60,994 bases of DNA from contig LBTZ01000001.1 of NCBI GenBank assembly GCA_000992325.1, positions 1 through 60,994 of the forward strand. Reading direction: 5' to 3'. Origin of the DNA: Parcubacteria group bacterium GW2011_GWD2_38_11 (GTDB lineage: Bacteria > Patescibacteriota > Minisyncoccia > Moranbacterales > GWC2-37-73). The notes under the pieces are model-generated. The model did not search any database, was not told where the DNA came from, and worked only from the letters and a program-made list of their open reading frames with translations. Of the stretch, positions 5,634 through 60,692 are shown piece after piece (position 1 is the stretch's first letter; every line of letters starts with the position of its first letter). Position numbers and translations under genes: made by a program.

Positions 5634-5737
5634 AGCGAGGGTATTTTTTATTTTTTCACTAAAAACAAGTCACCTTGGCGTTATGTCAAAAGTTGCAATT
5701 GTTTTTCCGTGACAAAAATAAAATATACCCGAGCGAT
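5634..5737. mobile_element. ~100-nt long-hairpin repeat element (family E), copy 1, in the glyQS 5' UTR
   Basis: Arms gggtattttttattttttcac / gtgacaaaaataaaatataccc. Conserved apical segment ccttggcgttatgtcaaaagttgcaatt. Related copies at 20159-20265 and 53094-53197, partial copy at 46296-46378. Confidence 0.7.
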
Positions 5738-5780
5738 TTTAATTATGAAATAAAAAACCATACTTTCTGCGTCAAACAAG

Positions 5781-5810
5781 GGCTGGATTCCCGTTTTCAC
5801 GGGAATGACA
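5781..5810. repeat. Family A palindromic unit (ggattcccgttttcacgggaatgaca)
   Basis: Hairpin ggattcccg-tttt-cacgggaat plus gaca tail. Same unit at 19578, 23722, 41395, 43107 and 51917. Confidence 0.8.
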
Positions 5811-15642: not shown

Positions 15643-15744
15643 AAATTAACTTACCACTTACGACTTACAACCAACAACGAAGCAACTTATTGTACAGTAA
15701 ATTATTACCCAGCGAGTGATGATACCAAGCTGGTTACTACCAGC

Positions 15745-16433: not shown

Positions 16434-17231
16434 TTATGCTTCTTTAATTGCTTTGTATGCGTAAGAAAGAATAAGCCTTAGGGATGAAATTGCATCATCA
16501 TTTGCAGGAATTGGGAAATCAACGTGTGATGGATCAATATTTGTGTCAGCAATTGCAATCACAGGAATACCCATTTTCTTAGCCTCAGTAATCGCCAAAC
16601 TATCTTCCTTGATGCTTGCAGCAAACACCGCTCCTGGCAGATCTGCCATATTTTTGATTCCACCCATTCTTTTTTCCATTTTTTCCAATTCTTCCATTTT
16701 CTTCATTTGCTCAAACTTTGTATATTTTTTGAATTCTCCCCGAGCAAGCATTCCTTCACTGTCAACCAAATATCGAGTTCGGCCGCGAATCACTTTGAAG
16801 TTTGTAAATGTTCCACCAAGCCATCTTTCACTAACAAATGGCATTTGCAGAGCTCCAGCCACGTCGCGCACAAGATCCTTGGCTTGAATTTTAGTTCCCA
16901 CAAAAAGAATGCTTTTACCGCTTTTTTTCACACTCACAAGAAAATCAAGAGCTTCTTGAATTTTTTCTTGTGTCTTTTGAAGATCAATAATGTTGATTCC
17001 TTTACGAGTTGTAAAGATGTATTCATCCATTTTTGGGTTTCTGCGGGCCTTTTGATGACCAAAATGCACACCGGCCTTCATCATTTCCTCAAGACTTTGC
17101 TCAATTTTAGACACATCAAGAGAAGCGAAATAGCTTTCTCGCCCCCCGCCTGCATCGCTATGCGAAGCATTGCGGGCAGGTTCTTTTTCCTCTGCAGCAG
17201 CCGGAGCTACTTGAGTAGTTTCATTTTGCAT
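16434..17231 (-). CDS. rpsB: 30S ribosomal protein S2 (N-terminal extension uncertain)
   Basis: The core MMKAGVHFGHQKARRNPKM...IFTTRKGINIIDL is canonical S2. The first ~40 codons include a family B palindrome (ARNASHSDAGGG). An in-frame GTG at ~17111 would give a conventional N-terminus. Confidence 0.9.
   Translation of the reverse strand: MQNETTQVAPAAAEEKEPARNASHSDAGGGRESYFASLDVSKIEQSLEEMMKAGVHFGHQKARRNPKMDEYIFTTRKGINIIDLQKTQEKIQEALDFLVSVKKSGKSILFVGTKIQAKDLVRDVAGALQMPFVSERWLGGTFTNFKVIRGRTRYLVDSEGMLARGEFKKYTKFEQMKKMEELEKMEKRMGGIKNMADLPGAVFAASIKEDSLAITEAKKMGIPVIAIADTNIDPSHVDFPIPANDDAISSLRLILSYAYKAIKEA
17144..17180. repeat. Family B palindrome (cccgcctgcatcgctatgcgaagcattgcgggcagg) inside the annotated rpsB 5' end
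   Basis: Near-perfect inverted repeat. Copies at 19781, 41463, 46314, 55592 and split at 49863/49951. Confidence 0.85.
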
Positions 17232-18030: not shown

Positions 18031-19104
18031 ATGAAAAATCAACTAGACGCAATAAAAAAGGAATACGATGAGATAACAGCTGAGCTAAGTTCTCCGGATA
18101 TTTTTAATAATGCCAAAAAAATGGCACAGCTTGGCAAGCGTCAAAGTGAACTTCAGGGTTTGATGCAAAAAATCAATGAGTATGAAAAAATCCAGCAAGA
18201 AATGAAAGGCAATGCTGAAATTATGAACACTGATGAAGATGCTGAAATGAAAGAGATGGCAACAACTGAAAACATCCAACTTGCGCAAAGAAAAGCCGAG
18301 ATTGAAAAAGAACTTGAAATTATGCTTTTACCAAAGGACCCCAATGATGACAAAAATATCATTGTGGAAATTCGTGGTGGCGCAGGTGGAGATGAATCTG
18401 CTCTTTTTGCCGCTAGCCTTTTTCGTATGTATTCCAAATTTGCTGAAAAAAATAATTGGAAATTAGATGTACTAAACTCAAATCGCACAGAATTAGGAGG
18501 ATTTAAAGAAGTTGTTTTCGAAATTAGCGGAACTCCTTCAAACCCAGTTTATCAAAAAATGAAATTTGAGTCCGGCGTGCATCGTGTGCAAAGAATTCCC
18601 GAGACTGAAAAACAAGGACGGATCCACACTTCAACCGCAACTGTCGCCGTTCTCGCCGAAGCTGAAGAAGTTGATTTGGTCATCAGTGAAAACGACTTGC
18701 GAATCGACACTTTTTGCTCGTCTGGTCCAGGTGGACAATCAGTAAACACAACCAAAAGCGCTGTGCGTATTACTCATATTCCAACTGGCGTGGTTGTTTC
18801 CTGCCAAGATGAAAAATCCCAACTAAAAAACAAAGACAAGGCTATGAAAGTTTTGCGCTCTCGCCTCTTGCAAGCTGAAGAAGAAAGAAAGGCCAAAGAA
18901 TTGGGAGATGCTCGCAAAAGCCAAGTTGGAACCGGCGATCGATCTGAAAAAATCAGAACGTACAACTATCCACAAGATCGCATCACCGACCATCGCATCA
19001 AGCAGTCTTGGAGTAATATGGAAGGAATTTTGGATGGAAACATCGACCCCATTATTGACGCTATTCGAGAAGAAGACATAAAGTTAAAAATGTCTAATTC
19101 CTAA
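18031..19104 (+). CDS. prfA: Peptide chain release factor 1
   Basis: GGQ motif ([11 protein letters not shown]), RF1-type P-x-T tripeptide ([14 protein letters not shown]), 357 aa. Confidence 0.95.
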
Positions 19105-19162
19105 TTTTTTGCCTCAAGCTTATCCTTTAAGGACTAATGTCCAATAAAATCTCAATTTCAAA

Positions 19163-20158
19163 ATGACAATTTCAGAAATTATCCAAAAATATAAAAATCA
19201 ACTAGACTATTTAGATTTAGAAATCCTAATAGCAAACTCTCTTGGTAAAACAAGGGAGTTTGTTTTAACGTACCCGGAGTTTAAAATTCCATCATTGAAA
19301 ATTGAAAATTTAAAATTGAAAATTGCCCGCAGGGTTAAGGGTGAGCCTATTGCTTATATACTTGGACACAAGGAGTTTTATGGATTGGATTTTATCGTAA
19401 ACAATCACACTCTAGTTCCAAGACCAGAAACAGAAATGATGGTCGAAATGGCAATTGCTGACTTACAACTTACAACTTACAACTTACAACAAGATACAAC
19501 ATTTATTGATGTTGGTACTGGCAGTGGAAATATTATCATTTCAATAGCAAACGAATTAGAAAAAACCAAAAACAGCCGTGTCATTCCGGACTTGATCCGG
19601 AATCCAGAACGGAGCACAAACCTGGATTCCAGCCTCCACGGGGATGACAGGGTTAAATACTTTGGAATTGACATAAGCAAAGAGGCTTTAATGATCGCCA
19701 AAAAAAATGCAAAAATAAATGGAGTTAATAAAAAAATTAAGTTTTTTTATGGATGTTTACTTGAACCATTTATTGGAAATTGCCCGCCTGCTTCGATATG
19801 CGAAGCATTTCGGGCAGGGAAATTGGAAATTGGAAATTCCACGATAGTAATCGTGGCTAATCTTCCCTATCTATCAAAAGAAATTTACAATTCCGCATTG
19901 ATTGATGTGAAAAAATTCGAACCAAAATCCGCACTATACAGCGCCGAGGCAGGGCTCTCCCATTATAAAAAACTATTAAAACAAATCAAAAAAATTTATG
20001 CTCCATATTCCATGTTACGTATTATATGTTTTTTTGAAATTAGTCCCGAGCAAAAACCTGCACTCACAAAACTCATCAAAAGTATCCTGCCTTCTGCCAA
20101 AATAGAATTCCAAAAAGACCTTGCCAAAAAATGGCGTGCTTGCAGAATAGAACTTTAG
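19163..20158 (+). CDS. prmC: Release-factor glutamine N5-methyltransferase (PrmC/HemK) carrying several in-frame repeat insertions
   Basis: VPRPETE, SAM motif DVGTGSGNI, catalytic NLPY (NPPY variant). It lies immediately after prfA. At 331 aa it is longer than I would expect for PrmC, and the excess maps to repeat elements. Confidence 0.85.
   Translation: MTISEIIQKYKNQLDYLDLEILIANSLGKTREFVLTYPEFKIPSLKIENLKLKIARRVKGEPIAYILGHKEFYGLDFIVNNHTLVPRPETEMMVEMAIADLQLTTYNLQQDTTFIDVGTGSGNIIISIANELEKTKNSRVIPDLIRNPERSTNLDSSLHGDDRVKYFGIDISKEALMIAKKNAKINGVNKKIKFFYGCLLEPFIGNCPPASICEAFRAGKLEIGNSTIVIVANLPYLSKEIYNSALIDVKKFEPKSALYSAEAGLSHYKKLLKQIKKIYAPYSMLRIICFFEISPEQKPALTKLIKSILPSAKIEFQKDLAKKWRACRIEL
19578..19650. 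mobile_element. Complete family A double-hairpin element inserted in-frame in prmC
   Basis: gtgtcattccggacttgatccggaatccag ... cctggattccagcctccacggggatgacag, translated as RVIPDLIRNPERSTNLDSSLHGDDR. Confidence 0.8.
19781..19819. repeat. Family B palindrome in-frame in prmC
   Basis: tgcccgcctgcttcgatatgcgaagcatttcgggcaggg, translated as CPPASICEAFRAG. Confidence 0.8.
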
Positions 20159-20265
20159 CAGTTCGTATACTTTTTATTTTTGCACTTAAAACAAGTCTCC
20201 CTGGTGTTGCTTTTAAAGGTTGCAATTGTTTTTCCGTGCAAAAATAAAAAGTATACGAACTGCGA
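20159..20265. mobile_element. Family E long-hairpin element, copy 2
   Basis: Arms gttcgtatactttttatttttgcac / gtgcaaaaataaaaagtatacgaac. Apical segment ...ggttgcaattgtttttcc. Confidence 0.7.
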
Positions 20266-20442: not shown

Positions 20443-20616
20443 TTACTTCTTTCGTTTTGCAACCTTCTTTGCTTTTTTTGCAACTTTCTTTGGAGCTGCT
20501 TTTTTAACTGCTTTTTTTACAGTTTTAACTGCTTTTTTTACAGCTTTTTTTGCAACTTTTTTAACTGCTTTTTTAACTGTCTTTTTTACAGCTTTTTTAG
20601 CTTTTTTTACTGCCAT
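20443..20616 (-). CDS. Lys/Ala-rich basic protein (57 aa, histone H1/Hc1-like composition), not in the ORF track
   Basis: Hand translation gives MAVKKAKKAVKKTVKKAVKKVAKKAVKKAVKTVKKAVKKAAPKKVAKKAKKVAKRKK. Strong SD aaaggaggtg 6 nt upstream of the ATG. Confidence 0.6.
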   Translation of the reverse strand: MAVKKAKKAVKKTVKKAVKKVAKKAVKKAVKTVKKAVKKAAPKKVAKKAKKVAKRKK

Positions 20617-21294
20617 GTGTGAAACACCTCCTTTCGTAAATTTGCTCTTATACGAGTATCAAGCAGGACTCGTCTGTCCCACACCTATTCCTTTTATTTT
20701 TTTGAAATCGTCAGAAAAGGTGTGGGTTAGAGTTAGAAAAAACTTGATACTTTTTGGAAAACAAATTATTTTAATTTTTATTTTCAAATGAACAAAAATA
20801 TTTTTAAAATATTTTTTCTTTAACTTAATTATAGTGGATATTTTATAAAAAGCAATGCAAAAAAGTTATCCACAGTCTTGAAAATTAAAAATTGAAAAAT
20901 CAAAATGAAAAATGACAATAAAAAAATATTAAATTTCAAATTCATATGATTTTATCTCCCATATTTACTAATTAAAAACAGTTTCATTTAAATCATACAA
21001 ACAAAAACTTAATTAATTTCAAAAAAAATAAACACTAACTATAAATAAATTTCCACACACAAATTAACACGACATTTTTAGAATAAAACAACATACTCAA
21101 TAAAAAAATATTTTATATGTTTTTGAATTTCTTATTTTTTAAATTTTAATTTATCATTTTTCATTTTAATTTTTTCATTTTTAATTCAGCAAATATCTTT
21201 ACGATATCAACGTATATTATTTTTACCATATTCCATATGTAGTATGTTGTATGTTTTACGCTTTATTACGCCAAAAAACAGACTTTTTGTCTAG

Positions 21295-23721: not shown

Positions 23722-23837
23722 TGTCATTCCCGTGAAAACGGGAATCCAGACCCGACACCAATTTTACTATATTATTTGAAATAAGAAATTTTCCGAGACT
23801 AAGAAGGGCTGGATTCCCAGTCAAGCTGGGAATGACA
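23722..23837. mobile_element. Family A double-hairpin element (~115 nt)
   Basis: tgtcattcccgtgaaaacgggaatccag ... gggctggattcccagtcaagctggggaatgaca-type ends. The internal ~55 nt is homologous to the copy at 51917-52035. Confidence 0.8.
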
Positions 23838-25533: not shown

Positions 25534-25690
25534 TTAACTTACAACTTACAACTCATAACTCACAACATAAGATTAACTTACAAATCACGACTTACAAACT
25601 ACAACAGAAATGCATTCAAGATGTTGTTAGTTATTAGTTGTCGGTTGTTAGTTTTCGGTTGTTAGTTGTCAGTTATTAGTTGTGGGTTAG
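25534..25690. repeat. Low-complexity long inverted repeat built from (acaactt)n-like words (family D)
   Basis: aacttacaacttacaactcataactcacaac... is mirrored by ...gttgttagttattagttgtcggttgttagtt. Confidence 0.75.
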
Positions 25691-34161: not shown

Positions 34162-34331
34162 TTATGTTTTATATTTATTTGAGTTTTATGCCTTTATTTT
34201 GTCTGAAAATTTTCAATAATCAATTTTCAATTTTCATTGAATTTACAATGATTCAATGATCAATTCCTGGTTTGAAAATTTCAAAATTGAAAATTGATTG
34301 TAAATTGAAAATTGTGAATTGAAAATTGAAC

Positions 34332-34772
34332 TTAAAGCTCTTTTATCATTCCCTTCTCCACCAACGCATTATGCAGCTCTTCGCCAAGCATACGGTCGTG
34401 AAAAGTGTCGAGCACATAATTGTCTTGCATATGTTGAGCGACTTTCACAGCGTGCACAACACCTTTTTGACCTGCAATATCAATCAAATGTTGCACTTGC
34501 GATTGAGCGTCCATTTTTTCGTAGCCAGTTTTAGCATCATTGACAATAACTGCTTGATCTATTTCATCATCACTTTGCACTGTCTGAACTTTAGAAAGAA
34601 TTTTACCATAGGCATCATCCTTTTCGGCTGCACTAATTTCCTGTGGCATTTCACGCTCAATAGTGGCAAATGGAGATGACTCCTCACGAGAAAAATCTAC
34701 GCGCCCATTTTTAAGCTTACCCTCCAAGTCCAAATCACTTTCCTCAATCGGCTCTAAGTTACTCTTTAGCAT
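34332..34772 (-). CDS. Acidic hypothetical protein (146 aa)
   Basis: ORF in the same-strand block, with no recognisable motif. Confidence 0.5.
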   Translation of the reverse strand: MLKSNLEPIEESDLDLEGKLKNGRVDFSREESSPFATIEREMPQEISAAEKDDAYGKILSKVQTVQSDDEIDQAVIVNDAKTGYEKMDAQSQVQHLIDIAGQKGVVHAVKVAQHMQDNYVLDTFHDRMLGEELHNALVEKGMIKEL

Positions 34773-34921
34773 AAATTTCTAATTTCTAATTTCCAATTTT
34801 TTGCCCCAAGCTTATCCCTTGAGGGCTAAACAATTTCCAATGAATAAATTTCCAAATGTTTGAAAATTAATGAATTGAAAAATTGAAAATTAATTGAAAA
34901 TTGAAAATTGTGAATTGAAAA

Positions 34922-41394: not shown

Positions 41395-41512
41395 TGTCAT
41401 TCCCGCGTAGGCGGGAATCCAGGACTGAGCCAGACGGAAACGCGAACCTAGATTCCGGAACACCTGCCCGCAATGCTTCGCATAACGATGCAGGCGGGAG
41501 TCCGGAATGACA
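41395..41512. mobile_element. Family A double-hairpin element with a family B palindrome nested in its second hairpin
   Basis: tgtcattcccgcgtaggcgggaatccagg ... gattccgga[acacctgcccgcaatgcttcgcataacgatgcaggcggga]gtccggaatgaca. Confidence 0.8.
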
Positions 41513-43106: not shown

Positions 43107-43188
43107 TGTCATCCCGCACTTGATGCGGGATCCAGAAAGTCTCACTAAATAAAAAATAACCTGGATTCCCGTTTTCACGGGAATGACA
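43107..43188. mobile_element. Family A double-hairpin element (short spacer)
   Basis: tgtcatcccgcacttgatgcgggatccag ... cctggattcccgttttcacgggaatgaca. The annotated ATG at 43183 lies inside it. Confidence 0.8.
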
Positions 43189-46271: not shown

Positions 46272-46295
46272 TTTTGTGTTAATTTATGTTTATAT

Positions 46296-46378
46296 AATGT
46301 TGCAATTGTTTTTCCCCGCCCGCAATGCTTCGCATAGCGATGCGGGCGGGCGTGACAAAAAGAAAAATGTATCCGAGC
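46296..46378. mobile_element. Partial family E element with a nested family B palindrome
   Basis: gttgcaattgtttttcc[ccgcccgcaatgcttcgcatagcgatgcgggcggg]cgtgacaaaaagaaaaatgtatccgagcgac. Confidence 0.7.
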
Positions 46379-46382
46379 GACA

Positions 46383-47397: not shown

Positions 47398-48612
47398 TTA
47401 ATTTGAAATTATCTTTTCAACATATTCCCCAAACTCCCTCCTAAATCTTTCTCTCGAAAATTCTTCTCCTCTTTTTTTAATCACGTCTTTATCATATTTA
47501 TCCTTGTTATCCAAAAATCGTCTCACTCCATCTGCCAGCACTTCCGGTGTCTGAGCATCAAAAAATTCTCCAGTAATTCCCTCCTGCACTGTTTCTTGCG
47601 CGCCACCTTTTCTATATGCAATCACGGGCACACCAACAAGCATCGCCTCCACTGGTGCGATGCCAAAATCATCTTCTGTTGGAAAAATAAAAGCCTCAGC
47701 ATTTTGATAATATTGTGCAACAATTGAGTCTTCTTGCCAACCCAAAATTTTGATATTTTCTTTGGCAATTTTTCTTAGATATTTTTCTTGCTCTCCAGTT
47801 CCAATAACAACCAAGGGAAGTCCGAGCTTATTAAAAGCCTCCACCACCAAATCAACTTTTTTATATGCCGACAATCTTGACACAACTAGAAAATAGGATT
47901 TGGGTTGTAGGTTGTAGGTTGTAGGTTTATGTTTTTCTAATTCCAAATTCCTATTTCCTAATTCCTGATTTACCGGTGGATAAATAACATTGCTCTCTCT
48001 TCTATAATATTTTTCAATCCGCTTTTGTGTATAGACAGAGTTTGCAATCAAATAATCAGGCCTGTCCGCTGCCAAGCGATCCCAGACACGCAGATAATTA
48101 AAAATTATTCTTATCAAAAAATTCATTTTTTTATGTTCAGTTTCTTTGACGTATCTTTCATTATAATCCCAAACAAAACGCATCGGCGAATGAAGATATG
48201 CGATATGCACAGTATCCAATTTTGTGACAATTCCCTTTGACCAAGCGCCAGAAGAAGAAATCACCAAATCATACTCTCGCAGATCAAAAGTTTCAGGAAT
48301 CACTGGAAAAAATGGTAGAAGCCAACGATAATTTTTTCTTAAAAACTTAGGAAACTTTTGCAAATATGATGGCCTAATATCTTTGCCAGCAAAAATACCA
48401 TGCATTTTTTCTTTATCATACAGCAATGTGAAAATCGGTGCCTCTGGATACATCTCCGAAAGTTCCTTAAGCACCCTTTCCGCTCCACCCCACTGCACCA
48501 AAAAATCATGCACCAGGGCTATACGCAGCTTCCTTACTACTCCCTCTCCCTCTGGGAGAGGGTTGAGGTGAGGGGTCACTATGATATTCTTTTTTACTTG
48601 ACTATTTTCCAT
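47398..48612 (-). CDS. Family 4 glycosyltransferase (GT-B) with in-frame repeat insertions
   Basis: N-terminal RIALVHDFLVQWGGAERV. C-terminal EDDFGIAPVEAM (E-x7-E region). Repeat-derived segments LNPLPEGEG (48540-48576) and ELGNRNLELEKHKPTTYNLQP (about 47895-47960). Confidence 0.8.
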   Translation of the reverse strand: MENSQVKKNIIVTPHLNPLPEGEGVVRKLRIALVHDFLVQWGGAERVLKELSEMYPEAPIFTLLYDKEKMHGIFAGKDIRPSYLQKFPKFLRKNYRWLLPFFPVIPETFDLREYDLVISSSGAWSKGIVTKLDTVHIAYLHSPMRFVWDYNERYVKETEHKKMNFLIRIIFNYLRVWDRLAADRPDYLIANSVYTQKRIEKYYRRESNVIYPPVNQELGNRNLELEKHKPTTYNLQPKSYFLVVSRLSAYKKVDLVVEAFNKLGLPLVVIGTGEQEKYLRKIAKENIKILGWQEDSIVAQYYQNAEAFIFPTEDDFGIAPVEAMLVGVPVIAYRKGGAQETVQEGITGEFFDAQTPEVLADGVRRFLDNKDKYDKDVIKKRGEEFSRERFRREFGEYVEKIISN

Positions 48613-49019: not shown

Positions 49020-50291
49020 TTATTTCAAAAGAACCTCCGCGATTTCCTGTGCGCACTTGTCCCAACTAAATCTTTTCACATTTTCCAGGCCTTTCTGTAT
49101 TATAGCATTTTTTAGGGTTTCGTCCGAGATTATTTTATATAAAGCTTGGGCAATGTCTTGAGGGTCTTGAGGGTTGACCAATTGTAGAGGCGCGATTAAT
49201 CGCGCCTCTACGGCTATGATTTCGGGAATCGAAGAATTATTACTAGCCACAACAGCACAACCAACACTTTGCGCTTCCAAAACAGGAATTCCAAAACCTT
49301 CATACAAGGTTGGGAAAACAAAAACATCAGCTTTTTTTAATAATTCCCATTTTTCTTCTTCAGATACAAAGCCTAGTTCAGCAATACTTTCCTTGTATTT
49401 GGAATTTGTAATTTGATATTTAATATTTTCATATCCGTGCCCCGGCTTTCCAGCCAGTACCAACTTGTGCAAAATATTATATTCCTCTTTTAAAATTTCA
49501 AAAGCTTTGATAATATTGCCAACATTTTTACGCTCTTCAATACGACCAACGAATAATAAAAACTTGTCATCAGTCATCAGTAATCGGTCATCGCTTTTAT
49601 CTGAAGTTTTTGTTTCTTGATGACTGATAGCTGATGACTGATGACTATCATAGCCCTCATAAATAACCCTTATTTTTTCATCAGGAACTTTATATAATTT
49701 AATTAAATCTAGTTTAGTGTTGTTAGATACGGATATGATAGTTTTCGCCCACTGACATGATTTCTTAATTGTCCCGCGCATATAAACACGATCCCACCAA
49801 GAATAAGCATTAGGACAAAATTCATATTCCAACCCATGAATAACCACAATAGTATTTTTAGGCCCGCCTGCAACACTATGCGAATATTGCCAATCTTCTT
49901 TATTATTGAAAAATTTTCGAATATACCACACAAACGAATTATTAAATAAACGCGTAGCATTGCGGGCAGGATGAACAGCTGGAACAGTGTGAGCAGGCAC
50001 AAAAAGCACGTCCACGGGATGCAGAATCATTTCCAAAGACAAACCAAGCTGCGTCCAAAATCTTGGAAACTTAATCACCTTTATTTGCCAACTTTTTGGC
50101 AATTCCAAATCATTGATTTTAACGACTCCGTTGTAAGTTGTAAGTTGCAAGTTGTAAGTTTTTTTAACATACAAAACAACCTGCCGATCCTTTAATTTAT
50201 CACGCAGGTTTTTAATGACTTGATATGAATATTCTTCAATACCAGTTCTATTTTTTATAAAAGCCCGAGAAGCATCGATTCCGATTTTCAT
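49020..50291 (-). CDS. Family 4 glycosyltransferase (GT-B) with three in-frame repeat insertions
   Basis: C-terminal LYEGFGIPVLEAQ motif. Insertions: KTYNLQLTTYN (50129-50160); ARNATR...SHSVAGG (49863-49970); HQSSAISHQ...DDRLLMTDD (49566-49645). Confidence 0.8.
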   Translation of the reverse strand: MKIGIDASRAFIKNRTGIEEYSYQVIKNLRDKLKDRQVVLYVKKTYNLQLTTYNGVVKINDLELPKSWQIKVIKFPRFWTQLGLSLEMILHPVDVLFVPAHTVPAVHPARNATRLFNNSFVWYIRKFFNNKEDWQYSHSVAGGPKNTIVVIHGLEYEFCPNAYSWWDRVYMRGTIKKSCQWAKTIISVSNNTKLDLIKLYKVPDEKIRVIYEGYDSHQSSAISHQETKTSDKSDDRLLMTDDKFLLFVGRIEERKNVGNIIKAFEILKEEYNILHKLVLAGKPGHGYENIKYQITNSKYKESIAELGFVSEEEKWELLKKADVFVFPTLYEGFGIPVLEAQSVGCAVVASNNSSIPEIIAVEARLIAPLQLVNPQDPQDIAQALYKIISDETLKNAIIQKGLENVKRFSWDKCAQEIAEVLLK

Positions 50292-50293
50292 AA

Positions 50294-50336
50294 ACCGATA
50301 CGAAACTACGAATTATACACGAATCTACGAACATTC
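50294..50336. repeat. Family C repeat arm (ccgatacgaaactacgaa..cgaatctacgaac)
   Basis: The inverted partner is at 50729-50768. The same paired arms occur at 55690/55773 and 60600/60651. Confidence 0.8.
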
Positions 50337-51916: not shown

Positions 51917-52035
51917 TGTCATTCCCGTGAAAACGGGAATCCAGGCCCGATGCAAATTAATACTATATTTCCTGAAATAATAAATTATATTGAGATAAAG
52001 ACGGGCTGGATTCCGGGTCTTCGCCCGGAATGACA
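51917..52035. mobile_element. Family A double-hairpin element (~119 nt)
   Basis: tgtcattcccgtgaaaacgggaatccagg ... gggctggattccgggtcttcgcccggaatgaca. Confidence 0.8.
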
Positions 52036-53093: not shown

Positions 53094-53197
53094 AGTGAGC
53101 ATACTTTTTATTTTTTGCATTGGAATAATCCTCCTTGGCGTTATGTCAAATAGTTGCAATTATTCCACCGCACAAAAATAAAATGTATGCGAACGAC
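53094..53197. mobile_element. Family E long-hairpin element, copy 3, in a 5' UTR
   Basis: Arms gagcatactttttattttttgc / gcacaaaaataaaatgtatgc. Inner helix ggaataat/attattcc. Apical segment ccttggcgttatgtcaaatagttgcaatt. Confidence 0.7.
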
Positions 53198-53215
53198 TAA
53201 CACAAAAAAATAAAC

Positions 53216-55591: not shown

Positions 55592-55629
55592 CCTGCCCGC
55601 AATGCGTGAGCATAGCGATGCAGGCGGGG
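55592..55629. repeat. Family B palindrome (intergenic)
   Basis: cctgcccgcaatgcgtgagcatagcgatgcaggcgggg. Confidence 0.85.
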
Positions 55630-55689
55630 AAACACCCTTCTTTTAACCTCTTATATACAATTATAGCATACTTTTAGACAAAAAGCAAA

Positions 55690-55810
55690 CCCGATACGAA
55701 ACTACGAATTAAACACGAATCTACAAAAACTAACAAAAAATCTTACATTAAAAAATCAAGGCTCGGCATTTTGTTCGTAGATTCGAATATGTTTCGTAGT
55801 TTCGTATCGG
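55690..55810. repeat. Family C paired inverted arms with ~45-nt spacer (empty version of the unit that holds the GxxExxY gene)
   Basis: cccgatacgaaactacgaattaaacacgaatctac ... gttcgtagattcgaatatgtttcgtagtttcgtatcgg. Confidence 0.8.
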
Positions 55811-55811
55811 A

Positions 55812-57209
55812 TTACTTAAGTTTCTTCACTGCATCTCGGAATTTATCCCCGCGATCAAATTCATTAGCAAAGAGTCCGAAGCTGGCAGCCCCTGGTGAAA
55901 GCAAAACAACATCACCTTGCTCTGCTTTCTTTTGAGCAAGTGTGGTTGCCTCCGCCATTGAACTGACGGTTTCAATATTGCCCAAAAATTCCTCGCTAGC
56001 AATTTTTCTAAGTTTTTCAAGAATTTTTTCTGTTGCATTACCTTTCAATAAAATAGTATTTTTGGTTTTTTCCAAAATTTCCCCTGCAAACTCCGTAAAG
56101 TCTAAATTTTTATCTGTTCCCCCTGCAATCAAAATGATTGGTTTCTCAAAAGCATTGAGACCTGAAATAGCCGCATCCGGAATTGTCGCCGCAGTATCAT
56201 TATAATATTTCACACCTCTAAGCTCGCGCACAAATTCCAATCGATGAGCAACCCCCTTCAATTGAGGCAGAGCCTTTTTAATTTCTACCGCGCTAATCCC
56301 AAAAGCATATACTGCTCCGATTGCTGCCATCACGTTAGAAAGATTATGTCTCCCGGGAATAAGCACATCCTTAATCGCAGCTAGTTTTTTAACATCAATT
56401 CCATTGTTAAGATATATTGCCTCATCTTCAATAAACACGGCTCTGCTTCGCTTTAGCGGCTGGTATGAAAAACGCACGACTTGTGCAGACACCTCCTTGG
56501 TTGCCTCCTTGAGAAGTTCGTCATCATTATTCATAACTAGCCAATCTTTGGGCTTCTGATTTGTGAAAATATATTTTTTATCCTGAAAATATTTTTCCAT
56601 CGTACCATAATAATTAAGATGGTCCGGCATAATATTTTTAAACACAGCAATGTGCGGACTAAGTTTTGCCCGACCCAGTCCAGAAAGACGCCAAGAAGAT
56701 AATTCAAAAACCACCACTGAATCTTTTTTTAGTAGCAACAACTTGTCCAACACGGAAACTTGTCCGATACCAATTTTTATCGGATTTTTTCCAACTGTTT
56801 TTAATATTTCATAGATAAGAGTGGCGGTAGTCGTTTTTCCCTTGGTGCCAGTCACCCCGATTATTTTGTTTTTGCAAATCTTAAAGAAAAGACTGGAATC
56901 CATTTCAACCGGAACTTTGTTTTCAAGAGCAAATTTAATATGTTTGTCAGACCAAGATGCAGCTGGATTCTTGATCACCATATCAACCTTTGAAAAATCT
57001 TCCATCCTATGATGACCCAAAACATACTCCACATTTTTAAGACCTTTAAGTTTTTCCAGCGATGCACCGAGCTGCTCCTTTGTTCGCAAATCAGTTGCAA
57101 TAACTTTTGCTCCCTGCGTCACTAAAAACTTCACCGTGCCAACTCCGCCACCATGAAGACCGATACCCATTACTGTTATTTTCTTGTTCTTGAAAAAAGA
57201 TAACTCCAT
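55812..57209 (-). CDS. murD: UDP-N-acetylmuramoylalanine--D-glutamate ligase
   Basis: GIGLHGGGVGTVKFL, P-loop GVTGTKGKTTT, Mur ligase C-terminal domain. The ATG at 57209 is preferred; the upstream 21 codons of the track ORF are repeat sequence. Confidence 0.9.
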   Translation of the reverse strand: MELSFFKNKKITVMGIGLHGGGVGTVKFLVTQGAKVIATDLRTKEQLGASLEKLKGLKNVEYVLGHHRMEDFSKVDMVIKNPAASWSDKHIKFALENKVPVEMDSSLFFKICKNKIIGVTGTKGKTTTATLIYEILKTVGKNPIKIGIGQVSVLDKLLLLKKDSVVVFELSSWRLSGLGRAKLSPHIAVFKNIMPDHLNYYGTMEKYFQDKKYIFTNQKPKDWLVMNNDDELLKEATKEVSAQVVRFSYQPLKRSRAVFIEDEAIYLNNGIDVKKLAAIKDVLIPGRHNLSNVMAAIGAVYAFGISAVEIKKALPQLKGVAHRLEFVRELRGVKYYNDTAATIPDAAISGLNAFEKPIILIAGGTDKNLDFTEFAGEILEKTKNTILLKGNATEKILEKLRKIASEEFLGNIETVSSMAEATTLAQKKAEQGDVVLLSPGAASFGLFANEFDRGDKFRDAVKKLK

Positions 57210-60590: not shown

Positions 60591-60599
60591 TTATGTTTA

Positions 60600-60689
60600 C
60601 CGATACGAAACTACGAAACTGGTACAAATCTACGAACAAATCTTAAATTCTTTTCGTAGATTCGGATGTCATTCGTTGTTTCGGATCGC
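60600..60689. repeat. Family C paired inverted arms
   Basis: ccgatacgaaactacgaaactggtacaaatctacgaac ... ttttcgtagattcggatgtcattcgttgtttcggatcg. Confidence 0.75.
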
Positions 60690-60692
60690 TTG

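Follow-up and report, generated by a model that had tools for sequence, protein, structure and literature searches.

Rickettsia palindromic elements (RPEs), inverted-repeat elements of about 100-150 bp, occur inside housekeeping genes without breaking the reading frame (Ogata et al. 2000, 2002; summarised in PMC10969869). We describe here a comparable situation in a 60,994-nucleotide stretch of DNA (the window, that is, positions 1 to 60,994 of contig LBTZ01000001.1 from Parcubacteria group bacterium GW2011_GWD2_38_11, an ultra-small bacterium of groundwater), where prmC, the gene for a release-factor N5-glutamine methyltransferase, holds three 7-base tandem runs and two hairpin elements, all in an open frame. 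We consider it probable that these segments are selfish repeat DNA, filtered by open-frame selection within permissive segments of the protein. Other known small repeats resemble those found in this gene. In Neisseria, the NTS motif ('Neisseria transformation sequence'; consensus CGTCATTCCCGCGMAVGCGGGAATCYRG) is a longer form of the dRS3 repeat ATTCCC-N8-GGGAAT; the GIY-YIG single-strand nuclease SsnA targets and cleaves it and thereby shapes the integration of transforming DNA. Ssn-related motifs (SRM) occur across phyla, Rickettsia being among the genomes richest in them (PMC11893778). Repetitive extragenic palindromes (REPs), which like REPINs are moved by RAYT transposases (PMC3116915), are extragenic by definition. 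Heptamers are over-represented in bacteria and little studied, with about four units preferred in Nostoc and Xanthomonas, for which G-rich quadruplex formation was proposed. From cyanobacteria, Elhai et al. reportedly described in 2008 the STRR heptanucleotide repeats and the small dispersed repeats (SDR), with many heptamer families and with tiny hairpins both embedded and nested. To our knowledge, such heptamer arrays with embedded mini-palindromes were never explained.

The prmC gene (19163-20158, + strand) encodes 331 aa, orthologues having typically 283-305 aa. The window has a G+C content of 37%, and the best relatives of its proteins are found in Candidatus Moranbacteria, within the candidate phyla radiation (CPR). 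An initial annotation, made from the letters alone, had recognised in this open reading frame (ORF) intact PrmC motifs, and the ORF, family, PDB and structure matches all confirmed it. The protein scores 199.2 bits against TIGR03534 (cut-off 199.1), which places it in the PrmC family, the margin of 0.1 bit being narrow because the inserts interrupt the profile match. The N-terminal domain PF17827 is present (37.9 bits), HemK chains of the PDB are matched with an E of 1e-20, and the AlphaFold model (mean predicted local distance difference test, pLDDT, of 82.5) has the two-domain HemK fold, with 1nv8 and 2b3t as best Foldseek matches (E about 1e-19; target-normalised TM 0.81-0.87). The motifs LVPRPETE, IDVGTGSGNI and ANLPY are intact; DVGTGSGNI carries the S-adenosylmethionine (SAM)-binding GxGxG pattern, and the catalytic motif reads NLPY instead of NPPY, as it does in 30/30 aligned relatives. 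Upstream lies prfA (release factor 1, with Pfam PCRF and RF-1 domains; 18031-19104, +), and the order rpsB-rpmE-prfA-prmC is common to the window and to the closest orthologous contig, L001. Methylation of RF1/RF2 is the predicted role of the protein, supported by its position directly downstream of prfA. The four repeat features that had been located in the gene were all recovered with the same positions and translations. At the gathering threshold, Rfam gave three tRNAs only in the window and no RNA family over the elements. Predicted tryptic peptides from the repeat segments are VIPDLIR, STNLDSSLHGDDR, FFYGCLLEPFIGNCPPASICEAFR and LEIGNSTIVIVANLPYLSK.

Insertion status was judged by codon alignments with L001, whose PrmC has 296 aa, and with five GTDB Moranbacteria. 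At site 4, a palindrome of family B (19783-19818, +) of 36 nt, or 12 codons, encodes (C)PPASICEAFRAG. It severs the first unit, GGAAATTG (19775-19782, +), of an ancestral (GGAAATT)4 array from the remaining three units, which occupy 19817-19842 (+), encode KLEIGNS and give a (GGAAATT)3 repeat call at 19818-19838. The polarity of this insertion is directly visible: at the same codons L001 reads GGAAATTGGAAATTGGAAATTGGAAATTCC, an unbroken (GGAAATT)4, and the array is also uninterrupted in two other orthologues (L007 and L160), while the window palindrome sits at TTG^GAA of the array and is followed by about 50 nt identical to L001. Another copy lies in frame in rpsB (17145-17180, -), where it encodes PARNASHSDAGG within an N-terminal extension of ribosomal protein S2; L001 is without exactly those 36 nt, and the downstream DNA is identical over the codons shown. 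Both copies are clean 36-nt insertions, demonstrably recent relative to the closest orthologous contig. No target-site duplication was present at the prmC or the rpsB copy, and for families A and B together neither target-site duplications nor a common target motif were seen, except TTG^GAA in two (GGAAATT)n arrays.

Further copies of family B were found at 55592-55628 (intergenic, 37 nt), at 41463-41498, nested in the right hairpin of an intergenic family A element, at 46315-46350, nested in an inverted-repeat element of family C, and, in metagenome contigs, inside an (AAATTCN)n array. Elements of family C are inverted repeats some 100 nt long, each arm measuring about 30 nt (GCAGTTCGTATACTTTTTATTTTTGCAC...); copies lie at 5636-5738, 46290-46380 and 53096-53198, and one at 20158-20263 directly follows the prmC stop codon. 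Similar small palindromes sit in arrays of orthologous prmC genes: one of 21 nt (CCTGCCTGTCCGGTAGGCAGG) at site 4 of L134, at the same TTG^GAA position in (GGAAATT)n; one of 33 nt in (GTTACGA)n at site 5 of L117; one of 45 nt in (GGTCACT)n at site 5 of L103; one of 21 nt in (CAAACTA)n at site 3 of L133; and one of about 21 nt inside an NTS hairpin at site 3 of L141. Every palindrome copy in coding DNA has a length divisible by three, which is what the survival of in-frame insertions alone would produce. Stop-freeness by design was rejected for family B: 0-1 of its six frames contain stops, and 52% of shuffles of the same composition do as well. The earlier proposal of selection for frame-neutral, stop-free elements is thus unneeded, family B being typical of its shuffles and family A having stops in two sense frames.

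At site 3, the family A double hairpin (19579-19649, +) consists of TGTCATTCCGGACTTGATCCGGAATCCAG, 14 nt and CTGGATTCCAGCCTCCACGGGGATGACA, its translation being (R)VIPDLIRNPERSTNLDSSLHGDD(R). This 71-nt inverted pair of the NTS/SRM type has diverged, its right arm has decayed, and two of its three sense frames have stops; compared with orthologues in which the loop is short, it contributes about 25 extra residues. L001 retains the right half alone (CTGGATTCCCGCCTCCGCGGGAATGAC, encoding LDSRLRGND) and is without the native ELEKTKNSR, a state consistent with a 69-nt deletion between two CAAAC microhomologies; with the right half present in L001, the insertion predates the split of the two lineages. 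The copy in prmC folds with z = -1.6 (15/200 shuffles fold as well), against z = -5.1 for an intergenic copy, and from its sequence it is best described as an old, decaying element. In many orthologues the same loop is occupied by family A or by other hairpin elements.

Relatives of this element also lie between genes. Full elements at 23722-23837 and 51917-52035 were found, the former an inverted NTS-type hairpin pair around an AT-rich core of about 60 nt; the element at 41395-41512 contains the nested family B copy, the short one at 43107-43188 has a 25-nt spacer and is the well-folded copy with z = -5.1, and a single NTS-type hairpin lies at 5783-5810 (-). The NTS consensus has 5 window sites with <=2 mismatches versus 0 expected, the degenerate published SRM pattern has 6 window matches, and some related loci carry GTCATTCCCGCGCAGGCGGGAATCCAG, an exact fit to the consensus. 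The prmC copy has no NTS match within 3 mismatches; it keeps the TGTCAT flank, an 8-bp stem and the AATCCAG tail.

In the AlphaFold model, residues 139-163 and 207-225, which hold the family A and B segments, are coil with a pLDDT of about 43-51, directly before strands 164-170 and 226-232, and both segments align to gaps in the alignment with T. maritima HemK. Both observations agree with the initial annotation, which had placed these two insertions in loops before the second beta-strand and before the NPPY strand. Sites 3 and 4 flank the SAM-binding and NLPY strands. The permissive segments would be, as modelled, low-confidence loops, helix ends and one surface helix.

The heptamer runs at sites 1 and 2 behave differently from the hairpins, in that both replace native sequence. 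The site 1 array (TTGAAAA)n (19291-19326, +; called as (ATTGAAA)4.6 at 19294-19325 by Tandem Repeats Finder, TRF) encodes SLKIENLKLKIA within helix 44-58. It causes no length change relative to any orthologue, and residues 44-55 are in the helix with a pLDDT above 90. At the same codons, L001 has (TTTCAAA)n with no indel. The site 2 array (ACTTACA)4 (19458-19493, +; TRF call (ACTTACA)4.3 at 19461-19490) encodes DLQLTTYNLQQ, a stretch where helix 88-105 runs out into the loop preceding strand 1, and adds about 1-6 residues relative to orthologues in the L001 codon alignment and the HemK alignment. Other orthologues use AATTTCC, AAAAGTC, AAAATGC or AGTCATC as units at this site. Where four insertions had been proposed, there are consequently two true ones, those of families A and B, next to one run without length change and one that adds about 1-6 residues.

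Relatives were fetched with a Moranbacteria-specific C-terminal alignment, which gave 50 distinct full-length prmC genes, and a strict array was defined by at least 19/21 matches at the lag. These genes contain 48 strict arrays of period 7, two of period 8 and none of periods 4-6 or 9-12; codon-shuffled prmC genes contain none. The 48 arrays use 32 different heptamer units and cluster at five sites, at window residues about 43-55, 96-114, 131-167, 203-230 and 276-290, so that the same sites are hit again and again across about 50 orthologues. In the window, at the strict threshold, period-7 arrays were present and, apart from the multiple 14, none of the other periods from 4 to 13, Markov shuffles giving 0; at a relaxed threshold there were 19 period-7 arrays versus at most 4 for any non-multiple period, and 30/78 TRF rows have period 7. 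As a control, we used 75 loci from other bacteria (267 kb) obtained by a whole-protein GTDB scan, with 5 Moranbacteria among the matches listed. They gave four period-7 array calls (two overlapping), all in other CPR lineages and at least two within the prmC match, and non-CPR prmC loci had no period-7 arrays. The control loci with arrays are L013, L015 and L030, from the Patescibacteria group, Falkowbacteria and Saccharibacteria; at least two of these arrays lie in the prmC match at roughly the same sites.

Orthologues differ at one site by concerted changes in every unit. Such differences require either that units be homogenised within an array or that an entire array be replaced. The same units recur in the window, ACTTACA at 15649, 19461, 25535 and 50130, and TTGAAAA at 19294, 34272 and 34860. 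Intergenic arrays often occur as inverted pairs (25535-25605 / 25623-25689 and 34208-34263 / 34272-34327) that could fold into long imperfect hairpins. The reading frame has left a clear mark on the arrays in prmC: 40/48 have a stop-free sense-strand unit versus 46% expected for the composition, and where the unit contains TGA or TAA, the single imperfect unit is exactly the one that would have been an in-frame stop. Thus, TTGAAAA became TTTAAAA in the window (the third unit of site 1, where an in-frame TGA is avoided) and in L005 and L103, and TTGTAAA in L118. This looks like a survivor filter and no designed property. Other origins of the periodicity were considered and set aside. Programmed frameshifting at slippery heptamers has an X XXY YYZ pattern that fits some units only. 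Quadruplex formation, as proposed for Nostoc and Xanthomonas, cannot apply here because the units are AT-rich. Selection for peptide heptads is at odds with a period of 7 nt that is also found in intergenic DNA, and with peptides that differ.

The initial annotation had described the elements as otherwise intergenic in the window. This was wrong, as rpsB and two glycosyltransferase genes also carry them. In the GT4 glycosyltransferase ORF at 49020-50291 (-), a roughly 111-nt element, AT-rich in its core and with family B sequence at its ends, lies in frame at about 49863-49975 (-; PARNATR...SHSVAGG), and an (ACTTACA)n array at 50127-50162 (-) encodes KKTYNLQLTTYN, with the same LQLTTYN as at prmC site 2. 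This ORF has four heptamer arrays, including an (AGTCATC)n and (GATGACT)n inverted pair in the interdomain linker. In the glycosyltransferase ORF at 47398-48612, two arrays, (AACCTAC)n and a (GGAATTA)-like one, lie in the interdomain linker (47896-47970, -). Orthologues of the former glycosyltransferase range from 350 to 474 aa and have the same element classes at a few hot spots, including NTS-derived peptides such as CHSGLDPESR...LDSRFHGND. The 111-nt element is absent from its two closest orthologues and present in distant ones. Repeat-derived peptides (LDSRLRGNDK, PARNASHSDAGG and LQLTTYN among others) make unrelated proteins look spuriously similar, and they depress family scores.

Structure and mosaicism were also seen at the level of the coding DNA. 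Hairpins in coding sequences are about 3-fold more frequent than in codon shuffles (94 vs 33.7). One of them (19231-19264, +) spans codons 24-34, where the conserved peptide NSLGKTREFV is encoded, and has up to 14 bp if G-U pairs are counted. It is kept with different base pairs in about half of the orthologues, and its covariation is suggestive: 61% of cells are paired versus 58.1% in shuffles and 27-52% in slid controls, a test that related sequences can pass without structure. Synonymous Ser and Arg positions covary in this hairpin (TCT with AGA, TCC with AGG) in L089, L103, L107, L112, L126, L136 and others, and it resembles the ATTCCC...GGGAAT hairpin of family A. A 7-bp hairpin, CCACGATAGTAATCGTGG (19839-19856, +), covers strand 4 (STIVIVA) directly before NLPY, and four orthologues have a hairpin there with different pairs. 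The prmC alleles are also mosaic. In codons 1-40 the window and L001 share 92-95% identity, beyond which they diverge, and L001 and L112 share 92-100% identity between about codon 38 and about codon 125, a block that stops some 10 nt short of site 3. The ends of these blocks adjoin sites 1 and 3. Such alleles may result from recombination or from strain-chimeric assembly.

Such repeats are a hazard for CPR assemblies, as words with a depth above 1000 fragment contigs and may give rise to chimeras. In a rival view, the whole pattern would be an artefact of chimeric assembly through repeats, or else of low-complexity composition in an AT-rich genome. In its favour, word depth in the source metagenomes is 60 to over 1000 for the repeats versus about 4-8 for unique gene sequence, short-read contigs break there, and 17 bases in the middle of family A (19606-19623) are not spanned by any single contig. 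The family A hairpin words (19551-19632) reach a depth of 1100-1350 in groundwater runs X4-X7, compared with 4-8 for the surrounding gene; with this depth, the motif must be common to many organisms of the community. However, an independent assembly from a Rifle groundwater run (L004) differs at 3/3943 bases and encodes an identical PrmC protein. Contigs of four groundwater runs span 19100-19490, 19463-19606, 19623-19804 and 19775-20161, so that every junction between unique and repeat sequence is crossed by contigs from several runs. The frame is open over all 331 codons, the same sites are used in orthologues from dozens of unrelated samples, and Markov and codon shuffles yield no arrays, period 7 alone being enriched. 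The concern, raised with the initial annotation, that read mapping might reveal assembly errors (chimeric repeats) is not borne out; we regard an artefact as largely refuted and extremely improbable.

If these segments are instead selfish repeat DNA passed by the open frame, three kinds of genome-wide repeat DNA would colonise prmC and all would be read, by prediction, as part of the enzyme. Heptamer arrays of 4-6 units would occupy fixed permissive segments, replacing native sequence and not lengthening it, and would turn over in concert, as we infer, by slipped-strand conversion or by replacement with like arrays from elsewhere in the genome. Tiny GC-rich palindromes (36 nt in family B; 21-45 nt in relatives), presumably moved by an enzyme, would insert without target duplication and with a preference for arrays and other repeats, family B having probably been active recently in the lineage of the window. 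Family A would be an older NTS/SRM-type inverted hairpin pair, now decaying in the loop before strand 2. None of these would need a function; as neutral passengers, they would persist where the protein tolerates extra or altered residues, and selection would remove any copy that disrupted the frame or introduced a stop. Several results weigh against this reading. Per kb, strict arrays number 1.05 in prmC, as against 0.24 in non-ORF DNA and 0.03 in neighbouring long ORFs, and pure tolerance does not predict more arrays in prmC than in non-ORF DNA; the excess can be reconciled with it if intergenic arrays decay faster or if the non-ORF class contains constrained sequence. The 111-nt glycosyltransferase element, found in distant and not in close orthologues, needs repeated precise loss, site-specific reinsertion or recombination. 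Three metatranscriptome runs of the same study contained none of the sequence, and no transposase or Ssn gene was found in the window: no RAYT (Y1 transposase) was detected among the part of the window ORFs scanned, no GIY-YIG match among 10 small ORFs, and no ssn gene by a crude motif scan of the window and loci. Finally, the excess of coding hairpins and the covariation in one of them hint at selection on nucleic-acid structure.

The last of these points suggests that the repeats could be kept by a DNA- or RNA-level role, read-through being merely a constraint; the NTS hairpins might be Ssn cleavage sites that limit recombination tracts, or the elements might be pause, stability or recombination signals in the prfA-prmC operon. 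The match of intergenic family A copies to a motif that SsnA cleaves in Neisseria (PMC11893778), the mosaic block ends beside sites 1 and 3, the coding hairpins whose pairing over codons 24-34 is kept with different bases, and the array density in prmC all go in this direction. Nevertheless, the family A copy in prmC has largely lost its folding, the arrays are without structure and their units vary freely between orthologues, no Ssn-like GIY-YIG ORF was found among 10 small ORFs or by a crude motif scan of the window, the mosaic blocks could be strain-chimeric assemblies at common repeats, and the covariation test is weak. We therefore hold such a role to be unlikely. Adaptive peptides, that is, lineage-specific loops or helices modifying the binding of release factors or partners by PrmC, appear less likely still. 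The helix at site 1 is modelled with confidence and its array-derived LKIENLKLKI is found again in many orthologues, sites 3 and 4 adjoin the strands of SAM binding and catalysis, and the hot-spot positions are conserved in the clade and in three other CPR lineages. Yet peptides at one site are very different among orthologues (LKIENLKLKI, FQISNFKFQI, FQFSIFNFQI and STRNSQLTTL at site 1), many orthologues have short loops with no element, both palindromic inserts are low-confidence coil, and the same peptides are found in the unrelated rpsB product and in glycosyltransferases. A broader proposal, which goes beyond selfish repeats filtered by the reading frame and which we put forward only tentatively as somewhat doubtful, is that Moranbacteria and, more rarely, other CPR bacteria have an active heptamer-specific system, in which arrays, even those within essential coding sequence, would be rewritten in place by concerted conversion or templated replacement and serve as landing pads for palindromes of 21-45 nt that insert without target duplication, and NTS hairpins within genes would set the ends of recombination tracts via an Ssn-like nuclease, giving mosaic housekeeping alleles.

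Other repeats lie near these genes. The end of prfA and the prfA-prmC spacer (19084-19140) hold (CTAATTN)n followed by TTGCCYCAAGCTTATCCYTTRAGGRCTAA, and this module (repeat family D11) recurs in an intergenic region at 34769-34830 (34772-34830 for the repeat module itself). Downstream of prmC, at 20444-20617 (-), a Lys/Ala-rich protein of 57 aa (MAVKKAKKAVKKTVKK...), histone H1-like, is encoded by 12- and 36-nt tandem repeats, and L001 has a gene for 56 aa at the same position. An ORF for a PD-(D/E)XK nuclease (PF13366; 50325-50771) adjoins a repeat family (AAACCGATACGAAACTACGAA...) with inverted pairs at 50291-50333, 55688-55814 and 60591-60691.

Genomes of the CPR, at about 1 Mb, are considered streamlined. 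Dense, probably selfish repeats in prmC, rpsB and cell-wall glycosyltransferases run counter to this expectation and, if the broader proposal is true, selfish repeats would be turned into new coding sequence in highly streamlined genomes, and palindromes of 21-45 nt would be among the smallest mobile elements. The before-and-after states of about 50 orthologues form a natural series of repeat-born coding sequence at defined loops and helices. In our literature search, no paper was found that links CPR with heptamers or with miniature inverted-repeat transposable elements inside genes. A second lineage, unrelated to cyanobacteria and with clean insertion polymorphisms, makes the heptamer/mini-palindrome mechanism testable, and the family A hairpin ties CPR to the newly described Ssn/NTS system.

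The initial annotation had called the situation RPE-like. What stood is the presence of in-frame repeats in housekeeping genes of a distant lineage (prmC, rpsB and glycosyltransferases); the four insertions and the selected stop-freeness did not. The observation is essentially right and the analogy holds, the fuller picture being one of clade-wide heptamer arrays, mini-palindromes and NTS hairpins in coding DNA. As with RPEs, inverted repeats lie in frame in unrelated housekeeping genes and would be translated there; they occupy positions that the fold can accommodate and turn up again in related genomes. Here, however, the host belongs to the CPR instead of the Alphaproteobacteria, and tandem heptamer arrays replace coding sequence alongside the hairpins. 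Because the elements, of 36 and 71 nt versus about 100-150 bp, are smaller, they would be analogues of RPEs and not members of the family. A link is possible, as PMC11893778 lists Rickettsia among the genomes rich in SRM motifs. Intergenic family A copies match the NTS/SRM motif and are, like it, oriented hairpins with a GTCAT flank, whereas the window hairpins form inverted pairs and some copies are predicted to be translated inside genes; the passages searched in the Ssn paper (PMC11893778) make no mention of 'intragenic', 'in-frame' or 'Patescibacteria' copies. Family A also resembles REPINs (PMC3116915) in its two inverted hairpins with a short spacer, in the occurrence of single hairpins, and in being without target-site duplications, but its hairpin sequence matches the NTS motif and not any REP known to us. 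The heptamer arrays are comparable to STRRs in that several dispersed families of tandem 7-nt units coexist, although the AT-rich units are not the cyanobacterial ones and the lineage is CPR. The small palindromes are comparable to SDRs, which are reportedly likewise very small hairpins embedded in heptamer arrays and nested in other repeats. In contrast to both, the arrays and palindromes described here lie inside essential coding sequences, at conserved sites.

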